Shown here: positions 30,250 through 37,045 of the stretch, one piece after another
How positions within the stretch are numbered: the first letter of the stretch is position 1
Layout of the letters: every line of letters starts with the position of its first letter
From: Candidatus Thorarchaeota archaeon
GTDB lineage: Archaea > Asgardarchaeota > Thorarchaeia > Thorarchaeales > Thorarchaeaceae
Length of the DNA stretch: 64,000 bases
Assembly: GCA_963726195.1 (NCBI GenBank)
Contig: CAVSBO010000018.1
Coordinates: forward strand, 55,894 to 119,893
Direction of reading: 5' to 3'
The notes under the pieces: generated by a model
Told to the model about the DNA's origin: nothing
The model's input: the letters and a program-made list of their open reading frames with translations, nothing else
The model's database searches: none
Program-made: the position numbers and the translations under genes

Positions 30250-30695
30250 AGTACTACACCTATTCATGCATTTAATTCATCGAGCTGCTAGGAAGGAATA
30301 CCGCTCTGGATGTTAATCTAGCCTGTCTCGGGCCTGAAATAAACTCTATCATCTCTGTTTGAGGCTCGCGTGCCTGAATTGCGGCTCTTGTGAGGAATGA
30401 GAAGGCCTCTAAGGCTCCCTTCAAGGAGCATTTCTTAGGCGAATGCCCTCTCCGACAATCCTGAGCACAGATGGACCAGCCACCACGGAAAGGCATGCTC
30501 CGGACTTCAAGCCACTTGGAAAGCTTTTTATTGTATCGGGGGATTGTATGGTTGCTTCGCGTCATACGGTGTCAGGTCTGATGCAGAAGGCGAATGCCGA
30601 GCGATGATGACCGGTGCCTCCAAGCGCGATCAAATGATGCGGACCGGAGATAGACCGGCGCACGGTTGTGCCGGAATGCCCTCGGGTCTAAGACA

Positions 30696-30754
30696 TGCTC
30701 AACAGTGTGCAGGCTAGATGGGTAGGCTCTCCTAGCTATCCACTACGCCTGTAC
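30696..30754 (+). other. 5' arm of the pre-16S processing stem
   Basis: TGCTCAACAGTG (30696-30707) pairs with CACTGTTGAGCA (32507-32518); GCTATCCAC (30735-30743) pairs with GTGGATAGC (32473-32481). Confidence 0.8.
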
Positions 30755-31718
30755 TTCATCAAGCTCACTCAAAGTGTGCATAAACGTGCATGACGGTCGA
30801 ACCTAGTTCGATTTACCTTGCCGGTCATGTGCGATATCGGGATGACTCTAGTCGATCCTGCTAGAGGGCACTGCTATCGACTTGGGGCTAAGACATGCAA
30901 GTGGAACGAACTCGCATCCGAGTTCGTCGCGAACGGCTCAGTAGTGTCGTTAACTTACCCTGTGGAGGTGGATAACGCCGGGAAACTGGCGGTAATACAC
31001 CGTAGGAGCGTCGTTCTGGAAATGATGTTGCTCTGAAATGGCGGTCCTAGGCATGTGGGATCGTCCGCCGCAGGACGGGACGGCACCGGATCATACTTGT
31101 AAGTGGGGTAATGGCCCACTTAGGTTTTGACCCGAACGGGCGATGTAAGTCGTGGCCCGGAGAGGGGCACTGAGACAAGGGCCCCAGCCCCACGGGGTGC
31201 AGCAGTTACGAAACCTCAACAATGCGCGAAAGCGCGATTGGGCCAAGTCGAGTGATGGGGGATAACTCCATCTGTAGTGGATCCTTAGTACGGACCACCA
31301 GAAAGGAGAGGGCAAGGCTGGTGCCAGCCGCCGCGGTAAAACCAGCTCTTCGAGCGGTGCCCACAATTATTGAGCTTAAAGCGTCCGTAGCCTGTTTGGT
31401 AGGTCCCTGCTCAAATCCGGCCGCTCAACGGTCGGACTGGTAGGGATACCGCCTTGCTGGGGGACGGGAAACGGCGACGGTATTCCACAGGTAAGGGTGA
31501 AATCTTATGATCTGTGGAGGACCACCAGTGGCGAAGGCGGTCGCCGAGAACGTGCCCGACGGTGAGGGACGAAACCCAGGGGAGCAAAGCGGATTAGATA
31601 CCCGCGTAGTCCTGGGCGTAAACGATGCCCGTTAAGTGTTGCATTGGCCACGAGCCACTGCGGTGCTGAAGCGAAAGCGATAAACGGGCCGCTTGGGAAG
31701 TACGGTCGCAAGGCTGAA

Positions 31719-31788
<70 letters not shown>

Positions 31789-32350
31789 GCTTGCGGTTTA
31801 ATTGGACTCAACGCCGGAAAACTTACCCGGCCAGACAGCCGAATGAGAGCCAGACTGACGATCTTGCTCGACGAGCTGAGAGCTGGTGCATGGCCATCGC
31901 AAATTCGTGCCGTGAGGTATCAGCTTAAGTGCTGCAACGAATGAGATCCCTGCCACGTAGTTGCCAGCCGGGGGTACAAACCCCGTCGGGGCACACTACG
32001 GGGACCGCCAGCGATAAGCTGGAGGAAGGTGGGGGCCACGGTAGGTCAGTATGCCGCGATATGGCCGGGGCCACACGCGTGCTACAATGGCAGCGACAAT
32101 GCGTCACAACACCGAGAGGTGAAGTCAATCGCCAAACGCTGCCGTAGTTGGAATTGTGGGTTGGAACTCATCCACATGAACCTGGAATCCCTAGTATCCG
32201 CGTCTCACTACGGCGCGGAGAATATGTCCCCGCTTCTTGCACACACCGCCCGTCGCTCCATGCGAGCGGCCTTGGGGTGAGGCGGCGTCCATAGGATGCT
32301 AACGAATCTTGAGGTCGCAAGTAGGGAGAAGTCGTAACAAGGTATCCGTA

Positions 32351-32546
32351 GCGGAAGCTGCGGATGGAAGAAGATGAGATTTCCTCACCTTCCATCAATC
32401 ACCTCCTATGCTTTCTACCATAGAGGTAGAAGCGGCTTGTTTCTGCTCTTCGGAGCAGAGGGGTACTGGCGGGTGGATAGCGTACAAGGGGACTTGCCCT
32501 AACTGGCACTGTTGAGCACCCTATTTCTTTCGCACAGGTTTGTCAT
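32351..32546 (+). repeat. Repeat copy 1: 16S 3' end plus trailer
   Basis: 196 bp, ~10 mismatches to 34885-35080. Confidence 0.95.
32369..32398 (+). other. 30-nt BHB-like hairpin intron in 16S (after E. coli A1531)
   Basis: GATG-GA^A-GAAGATGAG-ATTTC-CTCACCTTC-CATC-AA^T; removal restores GCGGATGGATCACCTCCT. Confidence 0.85.
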
Positions 32547-32601
32547 GTCCAGTGCAGGAGCTGCTTGATTCTTCGGGGTGCTGTTAGCATAAAGCCGCTG
32601 G

Positions 32602-33066
32602 TTATCCTTCTGTTGCGATTCGCCTGCTCAATGCTCGGGCTCTTGCCAGTTCTTCCGTTGGTGAGTCGTCGTTACAACTGTCCATGTAGTGTTGGTAGGC
32701 ATCGATGCTTTCCTTGATGTAGTCCCCTGCCTCGGCGAGGTCTTTCTTGCGCTTGGTAATCCTTGCGAGTTCGTACGGGGTCCTAGCCAGGTCGAGTTCC
32801 AAGATTGGGTCTTGCTTGATTAAGTCCCTAATCAATGTCAGCTTCTTTTCGAGGTCAGTACGAGTTGTCCCGAGCTTCATTATGTCTTCAAGCTGAATTT
32901 CATGCAGAATTCGTGCCAGACTTGCAAGAAGCTGGGGGTAGTTCTCGACCCTTTTCTTGGTTGCATGCTCTTCGAAATAGTCTTTGGCGAAGTTGGAAAT
33001 AGCGATCTTTGCTTCTCTCGTGGCGCTCCTCATTGTCCAAGAGTGTGTGGGGTCGACTTGATTCAA
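32602..33066 (-). CDS. Hypothetical helical (TPR-like) protein, cassette A; possibly a fragment
   Basis: 154-aa ORF with an amphipathic helical pattern. Confidence 0.55.
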   Translation of the reverse strand: MNQVDPTHSWTMRSATREAKIAISNFAKDYFEEHATKKRVENYPQLLASLARILHEIQLEDIMKLGTTRTDLEKKLTLIRDLIKQDPILELDLARTPYELARITKRKKDLAEAGDYIKESIDAYQHYMDSCNDDSPTEELARARALSRRIATEG

Positions 33067-33086
33067 AACCGCGTATCGCAGACGTT

Positions 33087-33728
33087 TCAGAGTCTTCTTC
33101 TGAGGTACGCGACCGATAATACTAGGACAACAGCCCCGGCTAGCACTCCACCTGCCAAGAGGTTCACTGGCATACCTTCTGAAGTTGAGGTGGGAGTCGA
33201 GGATTGTGTACGATACAGTGCACAGTAGGAGTAATTGACAGTATCAGATATGCTCCATCTGCCAAGGCTGTCCTGTGCATAATACTCCACGTTCCACACT
33301 TTCAGCCTGTGATCTGGGTCTAAGACAAACGTGGTAGCATTCGCATAATACGAGTATACTTCGGTATACTTGGAATTGTTGACGGCCCAGGTGCCCATGT
33401 AGGTCATGGTAACGTTCGTCCAAGTGGGGTCAGCATTGTCCTTGTAGCTGCCTATGGTCAAGTTCATCCCATTTGAATCCCCTATCCACACGGAAAGTTC
33501 GAGGACGAAACTCCAGGGAAGGGGTCTCGTATCTGCAGTCGTATCAACTATCAATCCAGAAAGGTCGACGAAGATAGGGCCCTCAGAGTTTGAACAGGCA
33601 AATGCTTTCGCATTTGTTGCAATAGGGGGCGCAACGAATAGGAGGGAGACGAGGACTGGTAGAACAAACATCGCGCACCTGATTCCACTAGCATAGATTC
33701 GCATGTTTACCACCGTTGCACTACCCAC
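33087..33728 (-). CDS. Secreted protein with C-terminal TM anchor, cassette A
   Basis: Signal peptide, YYAQDSLG.W, S/T-rich linker, TM followed by RRR. Confidence 0.8.
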   Translation of the reverse strand: MGSATVVNMRIYASGIRCAMFVLPVLVSLLFVAPPIATNAKAFACSNSEGPIFVDLSGLIVDTTADTRPLPWSFVLELSVWIGDSNGMNLTIGSYKDNADPTWTNVTMTYMGTWAVNNSKYTEVYSYYANATTFVLDPDHRLKVWNVEYYAQDSLGRWSISDTVNYSYCALYRTQSSTPTSTSEGMPVNLLAGGVLAGAVVLVLSVAYLRRRL

Positions 33729-33909
33729 GCAAGATGAGTAGTCCAGCTGCTTGCCGCATAGTGCGGCGTAGCCCAGTCTCTCTGATCAATTGTAAAGTAC
33801 ATATCAGTCTTGTAGCCACTATGTATGTTCGTGCGCTTTGATATACATTTGTCGATTTGCGAAGGCTTGGCGCGTCTCTTGTATGAAGCATGTGCAGTTA
33901 AGATTGGTA

Positions 33910-33966
33910 GTACTGGCGGGTGGATAGCGTACAATGGGACTTGCCTAACTGGCACTGTTGAGCACC
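33910..33966 (+). repeat. Repeat copy 2 of the 16S trailer (57 bp)
   Basis: GTACTGGCGGGTGGATAGCGTACAA...AACTGGCACTGTTGAGCACC, nearly identical to 32463-32520. Confidence 0.95.
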
Positions 33967-34060
33967 TGTTCGTTTTCCTAGGAACCAAACTTGCTCCTGT
34001 GCATGTTGGGAGCGCTTCTTTCGCATGGTTAGTGCCTGAGTCTCTCTATGCTATGCACGC

Positions 34061-34478
34061 TTACATCGCAGTCGGGTCGAGCCGAGTCAACCCCTTTATT
34101 CTGTCATAGACCTGATCCGTGGAGGCAATGGTATGGTCTGGATTGTCTTCGCTGAGTGAAACTGCTGCGTAGATTGCATCAAAGATGGATGGCAATTGGT
34201 AGTTCTCCAGAAGAAACAATGCGGCTGAGCTGATGGTCAATCGTTGTCGGAACAACTGATAGATTGGGGAACGCCACGATGTGACTCATGACGTCTCGAA
34301 CTGAGGCCACGCCAGTGATGTTCCTCAAGACGTAGTACAGCTCAATCGAGAAGGCACTAGGGATTACGACATTGCCTAACTCTCCATTTCTTATCTTTGA
34401 GAACAAGCGAATTGCATGGGGCTTGAGGTAGTCTTCTTTCTTGTAGAAAGCCAGAATCATATCATTCTCAATCAACAC
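34061..34478 (-). CDS. vapC: VapC/PIN toxin; apparent frameshift at ~34227
   Basis: LIENDMILA, SIE, SIFDAIYAA, STD..YD acidic PIN residues across two frames. Confidence 0.85.
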
Positions 34479-34710
34479 TCCGACTCTTCCTCCGCCATCT
34501 CTTGGACACATCCTTGGTAGCCTCAGTTTCTCCCTGTTGGAGAAGCTCAGCAATGGAACCCTGAACATCCAATTCAGGCTTCTCAGAGGGCACCGGAAAG
34601 AGAATATGGTAGGCTCCGAGACTGAGGAGAAGGAATGTATCTCCCTCTAGTGCAGCTTTCTTTGGGATTCTGATGCGTCTCTGACCATCCATTCGAACTC
34701 TTGCTATCAT
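34468..34710 (-). CDS. vapB: AbrB/MazE-type antitoxin
   Basis: RMDGQRRIRIPK swapped-hairpin motif; overlaps the PIN start; TGATATAA direct repeat upstream. Confidence 0.8.
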   Translation of the reverse strand: MIARVRMDGQRRIRIPKKAALEGDTFLLLSLGAYHILFPVPSEKPELDVQGSIAELLQQGETEATKDVSKRWRRKSRSVD

Positions 34711-34884
34711 AAAGAACATCTCGAATAGTGATATAACTGACATGATATAAGGATGTGGATGAAATACGCAGTTTGTGGACGAAATGCCGCTTTTTCACCA
34801 ATCTATCGTCGTGCCAGAAATCAACGCTGCCAGAACATGAAATGTGGTACGGTCTAGGCCGCGCGAAGGGCCACTCCTTTTGCT

Positions 34885-35080
34885 GCGGAAGCTGCGGATG
34901 GAAGAAGATTAGATTTCCTCGTCCTCCATCAATCACCTCCTGTGTTTTCTACCATAGAGGTAGAAGCGGCTTGTTTCTGCTCTTCGGAGCAGAGGGGTAC
35001 TGGCGGGTGGATAGCGTACAAGGGGACTTGCCCTAACTGGCACTGTTGAGCACCCTCTTTCTTATTCACAGGTTTGTCAT
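34885..35080 (+). repeat. Repeat copy 3: orphan 16S 3' end (degenerate intron, anti-SD) plus trailer
   Basis: ~95% identical to 32351-32546; central ~110 bp identical. Confidence 0.95.
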
Positions 35081-35123
35081 TCTTAGTGTGCAAGCTGTTT
35101 GATGTCTGTAGGCGATGTTGACG

Positions 35124-35408
35124 TTAGGGTACCGGTTGGCTTACTCTCTCGATTGCCTGAAGTACTTCGTCCACCTTCTTCTGAGAGAGAATCGTTCTGA
35201 CCGCATCAAGTTCGAGCCGATTTCTTATTATGACACCTATCTTATTGATTGGATTTCCGCTCTTGTCAATCGGATTGACCTCAATAGCTAGATAGGCTGG
35301 TTCATCCTTTGATTGAGGTATCTTTCTGATGAATATCCCGGGCTCGGTAGTCCTCATGCGTTCGAATCTTCTTCCGTGCTTGAGCATATCTCTCAGTGAT
35401 TCTTCCAT
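35124..35408 (-). CDS. Small conserved-looking archaeal hypothetical protein, cassette C
   Basis: 94-aa ORF (FERMRT.EPGIFIRKIP, LAIEVNP); SD GGTGA. Confidence 0.75.
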   Translation of the reverse strand: MEESLRDMLKHGRRFERMRTTEPGIFIRKIPQSKDEPAYLAIEVNPIDKSGNPINKIGVIIRNRLELDAVRTILSQKKVDEVLQAIERVSQPVP

Positions 35409-35494
35409 TCAAATCACCCGGTCATCCTAGTTGTAAGGTGTGCGCAGAGCTCCGACTCTCTTGTACCATTTGGTATATCGACTCAGGTCTTAGT

Positions 35495-35515
35495 CTTACT
35501 GTCACTGTTGAGCAC
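35495..35515 (+). repeat. Repeat copy 4 of the 16S trailer (21-bp remnant)
   Basis: CTTACTGTCACTGTTGAGCAC versus CTAACTGGCACTGTTGAGCAC (19/21). Confidence 0.75.
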
Positions 35516-35602
35516 TGTCTATGTTCTTGTGCATTGAATCAACATTAGTCCATGTCAGAAGGTCTGCGTAATGCAGCCATGCCTTGAGCTCTGGCGGACT
35601 CT

Positions 35603-37045
35603 CTAGCTCAGCTTCTTGGCTCTCTGCTTGATTATGTCCCTCATCTTGGCCTCAACATCTTTGTCCAGCGGTGGTATCTTATGGGTCTCAAGAATCCTCT
35701 TGACTTTCTCCTTGGCTCGCTGGACTATGTCTTTCGATCCTTTTGCTTCCCAGTCTGGTCTCGAAGTCCTATCAGTAATCCAAGGTTGCCAGTATTCCTC
35801 TCCGACATACTTCCTAGAGAACTCAAGAGCATCATCGTTTGTGAAATGATTGCTATCGTGTCCGACTTTGTCTATGATATCGACCGCTAGAGTCTCTTTC
35901 GTTACTTTGATGCCCTCTGCAATTCGTTTGATTGCCCCACAGATTTCATTGCTGATTGCGAACTGCTCATAGGAAGCAGTTATTCCCGTCTCGACGATTC
36001 CATAGACTGCGTCATGCACGACATCGGCACCGGCCAGAGTGGCAACGAGCACATTCAGAGCATTCTCGTATGCGGCTTGGGAATCCGGAACCTTCGAGTC
36101 GCTAATGCCACAGGCCCCGTAGTATGGAATGCCATAGTAATGGGCCATTTGACACATTGCAGCATGAATCAGACCATTCTCTGGTGCCCCATACGCGGCA
36201 GTGCCATGTCTCTGGTCTAGGATTGTGCCGCCTGAGCCCCACATGATAGGGGTTCCAGAACCGACGAGTTCTGTAATCACGACGACCGTATGATTCTCTG
36301 CTATGCCCTGTACGATTGATCCTGCAAGCGTAGCCGGAGCACTTGCGCCAGACAGCAAACCTGTGCTGATGTCAAATGGAATTCTGTATTTCGCGCATTC
36401 AAGGATTATGTCGATAATGTTTGCGGTATACTTGAGTGGGGGAACACTATTGAGACCCGTGTCAATCCAAATCGGATTCCTGACGAATTCCTCTTCTCCG
36501 CCGACGAATATCTTCGCCATTTCAATGATGTCTCTGAATGCCTGTAAGCTTGTTGCAAAGAAGCTGCTGTGCTTCTCAGTGTTCTTGAGCATCGAGAGAG
36601 CCATCGTTTGTTCCTTTATGCCATCGGGTACGTCCTGCGGGATTATGTTCGCCTTTACATAATCGACAGTAGGGAAGTAGTCTGAGAGAAGCGTAAACTC
36701 CTCCAAGTCTTTCAATGTCGAAGGCCTGCGTTCACCGGTCTCCAAGTCATATGTGTACTGTGCTCCGAAGGCGTTCGTGTAATAAGAGCCGCCGTCACCT
36801 ACCACGAAGTTGTGTTTCGGGTTTCGCGCCTTCATGAGATGACGACTCGGGGTCTTCTTGAGGGCTTCGCGAACGAGGAATTCCGGGATTTTGGCCACTT
36901 TCTTCCTTTCATCAATGATTGCTCCGGCTTCCCCAAGAATCCGAAGAGCTTCTTCGTGTTGAATCAGTATGCCAGTTCTTTCAAGAACCTCCATCGCAGC
37001 CAAGTGTATTGCATGAATGTCGTCACGACTCATCAGTTCAAACAT
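35603..37045 (-). CDS. mttB: MttB-superfamily methyltransferase (non-pyrrolysine)
   Basis: APATLAG, YGAPE, GISDSKVPDSQAAYE, TLAVDII.KVG; no in-frame TAG. Confidence 0.9.
   Translation of the reverse strand: MFELMSRDDIHAIHLAAMEVLERTGILIQHEEALRILGEAGAIIDERKKVAKIPEFLVREALKKTPSRHLMKARNPKHNFVVGDGGSYYTNAFGAQYTYDLETGERRPSTLKDLEEFTLLSDYFPTVDYVKANIIPQDVPDGIKEQTMALSMLKNTEKHSSFFATSLQAFRDIIEMAKIFVGGEEEFVRNPIWIDTGLNSVPPLKYTANIIDIILECAKYRIPFDISTGLLSGASAPATLAGSIVQGIAENHTVVVITELVGSGTPIMWGSGGTILDQRHGTAAYGAPENGLIHAAMCQMAHYYGIPYYGACGISDSKVPDSQAAYENALNVLVATLAGADVVHDAVYGIVETGITASYEQFAISNEICGAIKRIAEGIKVTKETLAVDIIDKVGHDSNHFTNDDALEFSRKYVGEEYWQPWITDRTSRPDWEAKGSKDIVQRAKEKVKRILETHKIPPLDKDVEAKMRDIIKQRAKKLS

Follow-up and report, generated by a model that had tools for sequence, protein, structure and literature searches.

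How does a genome with a single 16S rRNA gene come to carry further copies of that gene's 3′ end, lined up downstream of it with protein-coding genes in between? The question is raised by a stretch of 64,000 nucleotides (nt) from a Candidatus Thorarchaeota archaeon (assembly GCA_963726195.1, contig CAVSBO010000018.1, positions 55,894 to 119,893), hereafter the window, in whose numbering coordinates are given unless another contig is named. The sequence comes from a short-read metagenome bin, a 2.9-Mb assembly of 19 contigs with 88.9% completeness and 3.9% contamination. Between the 16S rRNA gene and a gene of the mttB methyltransferase family lie four copies of the 16S end and its trailer, which we call tails and number T1 to T4 from the 16S gene outward. 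The locus is very probably a genuine array that has grown by accretion at the 3′ end of this genome's only 16S rRNA gene, and one that recombines at its tails. As its route of growth we favor, with a probability of about 0.55, replacement of the 16S tail combined with homologous recombination between tails; that a nuclease triggers the replacement is a more tentative proposal.

Tails behind a single 16S rRNA gene

The 13-mer CACTGTTGAGCAC matches the plus strand of the window four times (at 32507, 33953, 35041 and 35503), against 0.15 matches expected from shuffles. This reproduces, far above chance, the four same-strand copies of the 16S 3′ end and trailer that a sequence-only reading of this DNA had described. 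A fifth match, inverted and with one mismatch, lies at 30695-30707 in the leader arm of the pre-16S processing stem, and five matches arose in none of 100 shuffles. Within the whole 2.9-Mb assembly the tail copies are confined to this locus. The same reading had put T1 and T3 at about 95% identity over 196 bp; repeat finding and alignment gave 10 mismatches (94.9% identity) and also recovered T2 as the 57-bp copy it had proposed, which differs from T1 (32463-32520) by one substitution and one 1-nt gap. T4, besides its exact 13-mer, is 74% identical across 43 nt.

Four of the T1/T3 mismatches fall in a 30-nt insert near the 16S end, two come right after the anti-Shine-Dalgarno (anti-SD) motif, and four lie beyond a run of 111 identical nt (32412-32522); the spacing of the two tails is 2534 nt. 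Standing beside flanks of 55% identity, the identical run suggests recombination between tails. The similarity of those flanks extends over 32547-32620 and 35081-35154, where it reaches the 3′ ends of two unrelated minus-strand open reading frames (ORFs) of 154 and 94 amino acids (aa). In relatives the 94-aa gene is preceded by a spacer of which the right flank of T1 is a variant, and this flank may still preserve part of an old tail-to-94-aa junction; the right part of T3, together with its flank, matches the tail-to-94-aa spacer of two relatives' contigs, L102 and L103. All ORFs between the tail copies are on the minus strand (Table 1).

Table 1. Coordinates of the 16S rRNA gene, its tails and the genes of the array
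Feature	Position	Strand	Description
Pre-16S processing stem, 5′ (leader) arm	30696-30754	+	Contains the inverted 13-mer; forms a duplex with the 3′ arm in T1
16S rRNA gene	30845-32408	+	Only one in the genome; Rfam RF01959, 1320 bits, 30845-32377
T1, native tail	32351-32546	+	Helix-45 loop and 3′ strand, insert, anti-SD, two trailer hairpins, processing-stem 3′ arm, T-rich end
30-nt hairpin insert	32368-32397	+	Between helix 45 and anti-SD; second copy in T3 at 34902-34931
Block 1 gene 1, helical orphan	32602-33066	-	154-aa ORF; called product 143 aa
Block 1 gene 2, 213-aa protein	33087-33728	-	Hydrophobic N- and C-terminal segments
T2, partial tail	33910-33966	+	57 nt; exactly the processing-stem 3′ arm, nothing more
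vapC (PIN) pseudogene	34061-34568	-	Frameshift gives two overlapping ORFs, 34179-34568 and 34061-34255
vapB-like ORF, 91 aa	34468-34743	-	Upstream of and overlapping vapC; no Pfam match
T3, displaced former tail	34885-35080	+	Begins in the helix-45 loop; insert decayed
Conserved 94-aa gene, old 16S flank	35124-35408	-	Assigned from position in relatives and homologues
T4, old tail remnant	~35486-35515	+	30 nt, between 94-aa gene and mttB; exact 13-mer
mttB-family methyltransferase, 503 aa	35603-37114	-	Right-hand frame of the locus; Pfam PF06253, E = 6.9e-104; synteny in L034 and L102

Close relatives keep a shared frame, with a peptidase M1 gene and the 16S gene at one end and mttB at the other. 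In three of them the last 900 nt of 16S before the tail are 98.0-98.7% identical to this genome, but among these relatives the tails are only 69-86% identical and differ by whole blocks. G003, a genome of the same genus, and the JGI contig L103 have the 16S gene, the tail and the 94-aa gene with nothing in between. Contig L102, which begins in helix 45 and leaves its 16S side out of sight, has a tail, the 94-aa gene, T4 and mttB and is colinear with window 34932-35950. The order in L034, a 97.7-kb ENA contig, and in L035 is 16S with T1, a different block of 0.5 kb, 81 nt plus T2 joined to the 94-aa gene, T4, vapBC, two small genes and mttB. There T2 and the 81 nt before it (33829-33909) are 86% identical to the window and followed by different genes, and T4 is kept in the same place, with a longer, better-preserved tail-like end in L034. 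L109, a Logan contig from another sample, begins at a T1-type tail end and is colinear with the first gene block (block 1) up to ~33770, after which an unrelated gene follows. The first slot behind the 16S gene is different in every lineage. A mosaic origin of T1 from L034-type and G003-type tails was also considered and was dropped, as a block-wise comparison of six tails fits a simple tree.

These orders identify T3, the 94-aa gene, T4 and mttB as the old flank. By this comparison, about 2.5 kb was inserted between the 16S gene and T3: block 1 with its two genes and the vapBC block, together with T2 and the right flank of T1. The sequence-only reading had counted the 94-aa gene as the third captured cargo. 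As recent cargo it is ruled out by its 102 homologues (59-96% identity, in Thorarchaeota and related Asgard bins) and by its place immediately after the 16S tail in the relatives with the simplest layout; it is a gene conserved in Thorarchaeota and belongs to an old flank that has been pushed away. In the complete genome CP070761 the gene is not adjacent to 16S.

The vapBC module (34063-34875, 813 nt) is 92% identical to a differently placed module in L034. Compared with L034, this genome shows 90-92% identity in the vapBC and 94-aa modules and only 77-79% in the flanking peptidase and mttB genes, which suggests that vapBC was exchanged later than the lineage split. Moreover, vapBC lies on opposite sides of the 94-aa gene in the two lineages, so that recombination between internal tail copies is required; a loop-out of the DNA between T2 and T3 in this genome would give exactly the T2-94aa join of L034. 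Recombination between tails is thus indicated by the 111-nt identical run, by this loop-out relation and by block swaps that end in tails. As the sequence-only reading had supposed, the 16S downstream flank is not invariant among relatives, and the same repeats bound a variable content of blocks. The serial growth at the 16S 3′ end that it proposed is not purely additive: in a relative, vapBC stands beyond the 94-aa gene.

Across the family, the tail-end motif is present in 58 of 86 genomes, 23 of which have three or more copies; the copies cluster on one strand of one contig, and control matches are few. Arrays of 5-9 units occur in G005, G012 and G017. The array in the window is small and partly decayed, one case of a structure that is common in this Thorarchaeota family, and its value is that close relatives display the turnover directly. 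To locate the starts of relic tails, we compared the bases upstream of ~100 helix-45 matches across the family with 16S, to which intact genes match over at least 48 nt. All 38 relic tails, from ~25 genomes, lose similarity 1-18 nt before the helix-45 loop (window 32335-32352), and none extends further. Several of these junctions are common to multiple genomes, and the independent events therefore number fewer than 38. The stretch in which relics start coincides with a palindrome, formed by the helix-45 strands ATCCG.AGC and GCT.CGGAT around a GGAA loop.

Recombinases, nucleases and 16S inserts

Neither an integrase nor a transposase is present in the array or in the 64-kb window, in agreement with the sequence-only reading. 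The tyrosine recombinase family PF00589 has one match in this assembly, on contig C17, and none in the window; G005, G007, G012 and G017 have 0-2 matches each, none on array contigs, with zero in G012, which is 97% complete and has seven or more tails. Among ORFs of at least 45 aa at 32540-35600, of which the plausible ones were compared with Pfam, NCBIfam, PADLOC and PHROGs, no recombinase was found. Nor was a nuclease gene found in this array, whose block 1 consists of a weakly TPR-like orphan and a putative surface protein. A query for TnpB, the RNA-guided nuclease of IS200/IS605 transposons, had no match in the window and a single match on the window's contig (C18:13462-13620, outside the window). 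Searches of this genome with the insert-free junction and the antisense segment described below returned no 16S-directed guide-like segment outside the 16S gene.

Relatives do carry such segments. A 17-mer in which GTCGG runs into the 16S end in its insert-free form has an exact match in 6 of 86 genomes and a match with one mismatch in a seventh, and in the three loci checked (G007, G005 and G068) it lies just downstream of a TnpB-like ORF (PF07282, 425-474 aa). G005 and G093 have three guide-like segments in tandem, one of them antisense to window 32330-32343. Both guide-matched 16S sites abut CGGAT on their own strand, that is, the two arms of the helix-45 palindrome. Five of the seven guide-segment loci are on the same contig as the 16S gene and 0.3-13 kb downstream of it, in the array region. 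In G007, TnpB is ~0.2 kb behind the 16S tail (~0.3 kb behind the gene end), and no relic tail was found beyond it on that contig. The idea that a nuclease always occupies the first slot was rejected, as none is recognizable there in G005 (an unknown gene, then merA and merB), in G014 or in this genome.

Behind the TnpB-like genes stand two or three units in tandem, each consisting of GGTCGG and 12-20 nt that match 16S, two antisense and one sense (L037 7484-7613 in G005:C2; L040 5829-5937 in G093; L041 5934-5989 in G068; L036 1609-1624 in G007). TnpB does not usually have such a multi-guide layout. G007 also has a further, divergent copy of TnpB adjoining the first.

The sites matched by these segments are also where short inserts interrupt 16S genes. 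In G007, G005, G093 and G068, the genome's own 16S gene is interrupted by a short insert at every site matched by its own segments g2 and g3. In the window, the insert at 32368-32397 splits the sequence matched by the guide-like segments of relatives. It puts 30 extra bases between helix 45 and the anti-SD motif (32398-32407), which is why the Rfam match ends early, at 32377, before the true 16S end at ~32408. Neither L102 nor the 16S gene of G003, which before the tail is otherwise 98.7% identical, has the insert; it is found in L034, L103, G005 and G007, where its inner stem differs yet stays paired through compensatory changes. Many 16S genes of the family have a second insert of ~30 nt between AGTCGTAA and CAAGG, with carriers including L023 5760-5790 (G005), L025 ~1418-1447 (G014), L104 (G068) and about ten more 16S genes. 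This second site is the one matched by the antisense guide-like segment of the TnpB loci. The second insert is not present in this genome's 16S gene, which has the anti-SD-site insert only. About 20 of the 31 intact 16S ends examined bear an insert at one or both sites.

A bulge-helix-bulge-like arrangement can be drawn in every insert-bearing copy, with a helix of 4 bp (AUGG/CCAU) between AAG and CAA and an inner stem that covaries; symmetric cuts would leave two surplus A residues relative to insert-free relatives. Folding of a 77-nt stretch that includes the insert hairpin gives -14.0 kcal/mol in T3 versus -24.9 kcal/mol in T1. The weaker fold is in line with the decayed insert that had been noted in T3, with the qualification that T3 lacks the 5′ strand of helix 45 and the gap is therefore not wholly due to the insert.

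Proposed tail replacement and its alternatives

The relic tails are stacked downstream of an intact 16S gene and start within one 18-nt stretch. This layout matches the model of WHO elements (Torulaspora, Lachancea; FBA1), in which each invasion replaces the gene's 3′ end and relics that start at the cut site pile up downstream (Coughlan et al. 2020, PMC7282813), and there are Asgard precedents at the 16S gene (see below). We therefore favor tail replacement after a break near helix 45. The route that we infer would begin with the entry of a relative's DNA that brings along a 16S end of its own. The incoming tail would become the working 16S end, and the resident tail, cut back to the helix-45 stem-loop, would be displaced downstream with everything behind it. 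Homologous recombination between any two tails would later delete, move or swap blocks. A relic probably arises when a double-strand break in the helix-45 palindrome, or immediately beside it, is repaired from a donor with an uncut 16S end, and the best candidate for the cutter would be an array-encoded TnpB RNA-guided nuclease, of the kind seen in relatives only. A fuller version, which we hold to be doubtful, is that RNA-guided homing builds the 16S-tail arrays of Thorarchaeota. A multi-guide TnpB encoded in the arrays would cut 16S genes at their uninterrupted end, inserts such as the one at 32368-32397 would confer immunity, and repair from an immune donor would copy its tail along with genes; the genome analyzed here would then be an immune carrier that has lost the nuclease.

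Several findings weigh against this route or against parts of it. With no 16S-directed segment and no nuclease in this array, the engine must be absent here or lost, and the first slots behind the 16S genes of G005 and G014 are also without a recognizable nuclease. The guide-like segment of G015 (L038 1836-1851, G015:C81) matches 17 of 18 bases of that genome's own, uninterrupted 16S end (L105, G015:C75). This could be apparent self-targeting, a small contig that was mis-binned or an inactive enzyme, and as it stands it would argue against simple self-immunity. Junction classes are common to genomes, and the fixed ends of an element, such as attP, would look alike in this respect; a tyrosine recombinase would likewise use a stem-loop palindrome. 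The comparison of six tails by blocks is compatible with a simple tree and does not reveal the mismatch between 5′ and 3′ parts of the gene that is the hallmark of replacement by WHO elements. Finally, the join between vapBC and T3 is known from this one short-read assembly alone. Exact-match scans of metagenome contigs with a 31-mer and a 26-mer gave no second copy of it, a weak negative given that only exact matches counted and that near records may be left out of such scans.

Some of these points would be expected under site-specific recombination at the helix-45 palindrome, with a Xer-like host recombinase, or an unrecognized integrase, acting in trans. The 9-bp inverted arms around GGAA would be the core site, and blocks would move as circles with one tail, a kind of movement with analogues in integron cassettes and in elements that exploit Xer at dif sites. 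tRNA-targeting integrases cross over in stem-loops, and the relics start inside or just left of one; shared junction classes would correspond to fixed attP ends, the blocks are without mobility genes, and the relation to L034 agrees with a circle of one tail plus vapBC having been excised or inserted. We nevertheless consider it unlikely that such an enzyme built the arrays, as PF00589 matches number 0-2 per genome, never fall on an array contig and are lacking in G012. Moreover, the relic starts are spread over 18 nt with no single crossover point, and copies of the T2 and T4 types still bound blocks although they lack the palindrome. The 111-nt identical run, for its part, resembles homologous exchange.

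That last observation would be equally at home if homologous recombination alone were at work, with 16S as the best-conserved anchor, rare illegitimate joins as the source of the first relics and no dedicated enzyme. Block swaps end in tails or in conserved flanks, this array has no enzyme gene, and modules are more similar between lineages than the genes that flank them, all of which such recombination would explain. It would have to account for the relic starts as well, and here it fares poorly, since random joins would not put 38 of 38 starts in one 18-nt window; it also leaves unexplained why arrays hold TnpB genes with 16S-matching segments. We judge it improbable as the whole account, and tail replacement retains homologous recombination as its second component.

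An assembly artefact, in which a simple flank (16S, tail, 94-aa gene) was stitched to a separate 2.5-kb circle or to a second strain, is highly improbable. Such an error would not be out of place in a short-read bin with 3.9% contamination. The 111-nt run might allow an assembler to switch paths, the vapBC-T3 join is in no other contig found, relatives' assemblies often break at tails, and a 2534-nt spacing of repeats 95% identical would fit a small circle and an empty site. Against this, the 10 differences between T1 and T3 flank the identical run on both sides, with each version tied to its own flank. The join between a T1-type flank and block 1 recurs in an independent sample (L109), T2 and T4 recur with their flanks in L034 and L035, and L102 is colinear across T4. 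Joins at the boundary of a repeat are not something that an assembler can create, so some molecule must link vapBC to the helix-45 loop, and even a circle would imply a mobile block that bears a tail.

The tails might instead be kept for a function in RNA. The leader (30685-30760) and the 3′ arm of T1 pair with a duplex energy of -76.0 kcal/mol, compared with -37 for the mean of shuffles; the corresponding energies are -71.1 kcal/mol for T2, -77.3 for T3 and -43.8 for T4, the last within the shuffle range. The sequence-only reading had suggested that every repeat could pair with the leader arm in place of T1, which energetically applies to T2 and T3 but not to T4. Such alternative pairing is possible on paper and would require read-through of 1.4-2.5 kb across convergent genes. 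That spare tails are kept as alternative 3′ arms, terminators or decoy anti-SDs, with the gene blocks incidental, is scarcely credible. In its favor, pairing with the leader could be as strong for T2 and T3 as for T1, and every unit ends T-rich after the conserved 13-mer. On the other side, T3 has a decayed insert hairpin and is without the helix-45 5′ strand, and pairing with the leader arm is lost in T4. Close relatives vary freely in copy number and in content, some having no spare copy, and an RNA function does not explain why every copy begins at helix 45.

Cargo, known systems and meaning

The 154-aa orphan of block 1 has a single homologue among 5.8 billion proteins and weak TPR-like features in a protein atlas. 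Its neighbor, the 213-aa protein, is probably secreted or surface-anchored, to judge from its terminal segments; a homologue of 207 aa comes after gene 1 in L109. The 154-, 213-, 91- and 94-aa ORFs had nothing credible in Pfam, NCBIfam, PADLOC or PHROGs, and the 94-aa protein resembles, by its atlas features, unnamed clusters of small proteins widespread in Archaea. The two pieces of vapC align with residues 41-155 (65% identity) and 155-208 (80% identity) of a protein of G005, and the PIN assignment is made solely through that homologue, which matches Pfam PIN (PF01850). The vapBC pair that the sequence-only reading had named is thus present as a pair-like module, but not as an intact PIN toxin preceded by an antitoxin gene, as vapC is frameshifted and the 91-aa vapB-like ORF matches no family. 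Because of the frameshift, vapC cannot at present stabilize the array, which removes the stabilizing role that had been proposed for the toxin-antitoxin genes. At the far end of the locus, Rfam reports the pyrrolysine insertion element PYLIS_3 at 36007-36106 on the minus strand (40.7 bits versus a threshold of 38), within the mttB-family ORF. This ORF has no in-frame stop across 503 codons and therefore looks like a non-pyrrolysine member of its family, and the match probably reflects similarity of coding sequence. No 23S gene was found in the window with Rfam.

The arrays of relatives contain a heavy-metal P-type ATPase, an ABC transporter, LplA (lipoate ligase), an HNH nuclease, several PIN toxins and merA/merB. 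Those of G005 include merA with a metal-binding domain and merB, as well as a heavy-metal P-type ATPase (L023 7240-9654, G005:C2; L016 15029-17281, G005:C14). Arrays thus hold adaptive cargo besides toxin-antitoxin pairs. Cargo does not keep one orientation with respect to the tails from genome to genome.

No description of 16S-tail arrays was found in full-text literature searches. The array belongs, as a variant, with the additive islands at the 3′ ends of conserved genes. The likeness to WHO elements is closest: an essential gene gains new 3′ ends, relics run from one site with genes between them, the newest unit stands beside the intact gene, and there is no integrase. WHO units differ in that each carries a gene for a protein endonuclease whose cleavage has been shown experimentally. 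The array described here has ordinary cargo and no nuclease, and in this genome no endonuclease gene lies between the intact 16S gene and the first relic. It has an rRNA gene as its target, shows evident internal reshuffling among its relics, and has as sole candidate cutter the TnpB of relatives.

The Asgard precedents are HeimM2 and HeimV2 of Ca. Heimdallarchaeum (Wu et al. 2022, PMC8813620). In the excerpt of that report drawn on here, these mobile elements are inserted exactly behind a single 16S gene, and one has a homologue of an rRNA-intron homing endonuclease that is proposed to have been co-opted for integration. They are single elements of 8 kb and 44 kb in another Asgard class, and the excerpt describes neither repeated tails nor arrays of several blocks.

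Islands at tRNA and tmRNA genes are likewise bounded by direct repeats that copy a conserved RNA gene's 3′ part, as the units here are by T1-T4, and they too grow additively while old units decay. They bring their own tyrosine integrases and usually measure many kb, whereas the units here are of 0.4-1.4 kb, have no integrase in or next to them and are anchored at an rRNA gene. Integrons and clusters of attC sites lacking integrases (CALINs), which have been reported in Archaea as well, share with the array few-gene, promoter-poor modules, a richness in toxin-antitoxin genes, a recurring site and an order that varies among relatives. Here there is no IntI, the site is a direct copy of 57-196 nt of the host's 16S end, the boundaries are collinear with the rRNA gene and are not self-complementary attC palindromes, and module orientation varies across genomes.

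TnpB of IS200/IS605 elements acts with a guide RNA as a homing nuclease for transposon retention, in the excerpted account of a preprint (bioRxiv 10.1101/2023.11.20.567912). As in that account, the loci of relatives have a TnpB-like ORF followed by a short segment that matches a genomic site beside a fixed 5-nt motif. Compared with what the excerpt describes, relatives differ in having two or three tandem guide-like segments directed at both strands of one rRNA gene, and in that the segments match the uninterrupted form of a gene that the host carries interrupted; the window contains nothing alike.

If tails serve as recombination anchors, the flank of a single rRNA gene would be a general site of gene exchange in a major Asgard lineage, without the integrases of integrons or tRNA islands. 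The genes exchanged there would be toxin-antitoxin pairs in this genome, and metal resistance, mercury resistance and transporters in relatives. The frequent assembly breaks at Thorarchaeota 16S genes would then be explained. Typing based on 16S would also be affected, as the last 60 nt and the trailer may have a history separate from the rest of the gene. Moreover, the arrays offer a concrete test case for an RNA-guided transposon nuclease that homes into an essential RNA gene, with short inserts as the defense. Were RNA-guided homing to prove true, these archaea would possess an integron-like gene-collecting locus driven by a transposon nuclease instead of an integrase.

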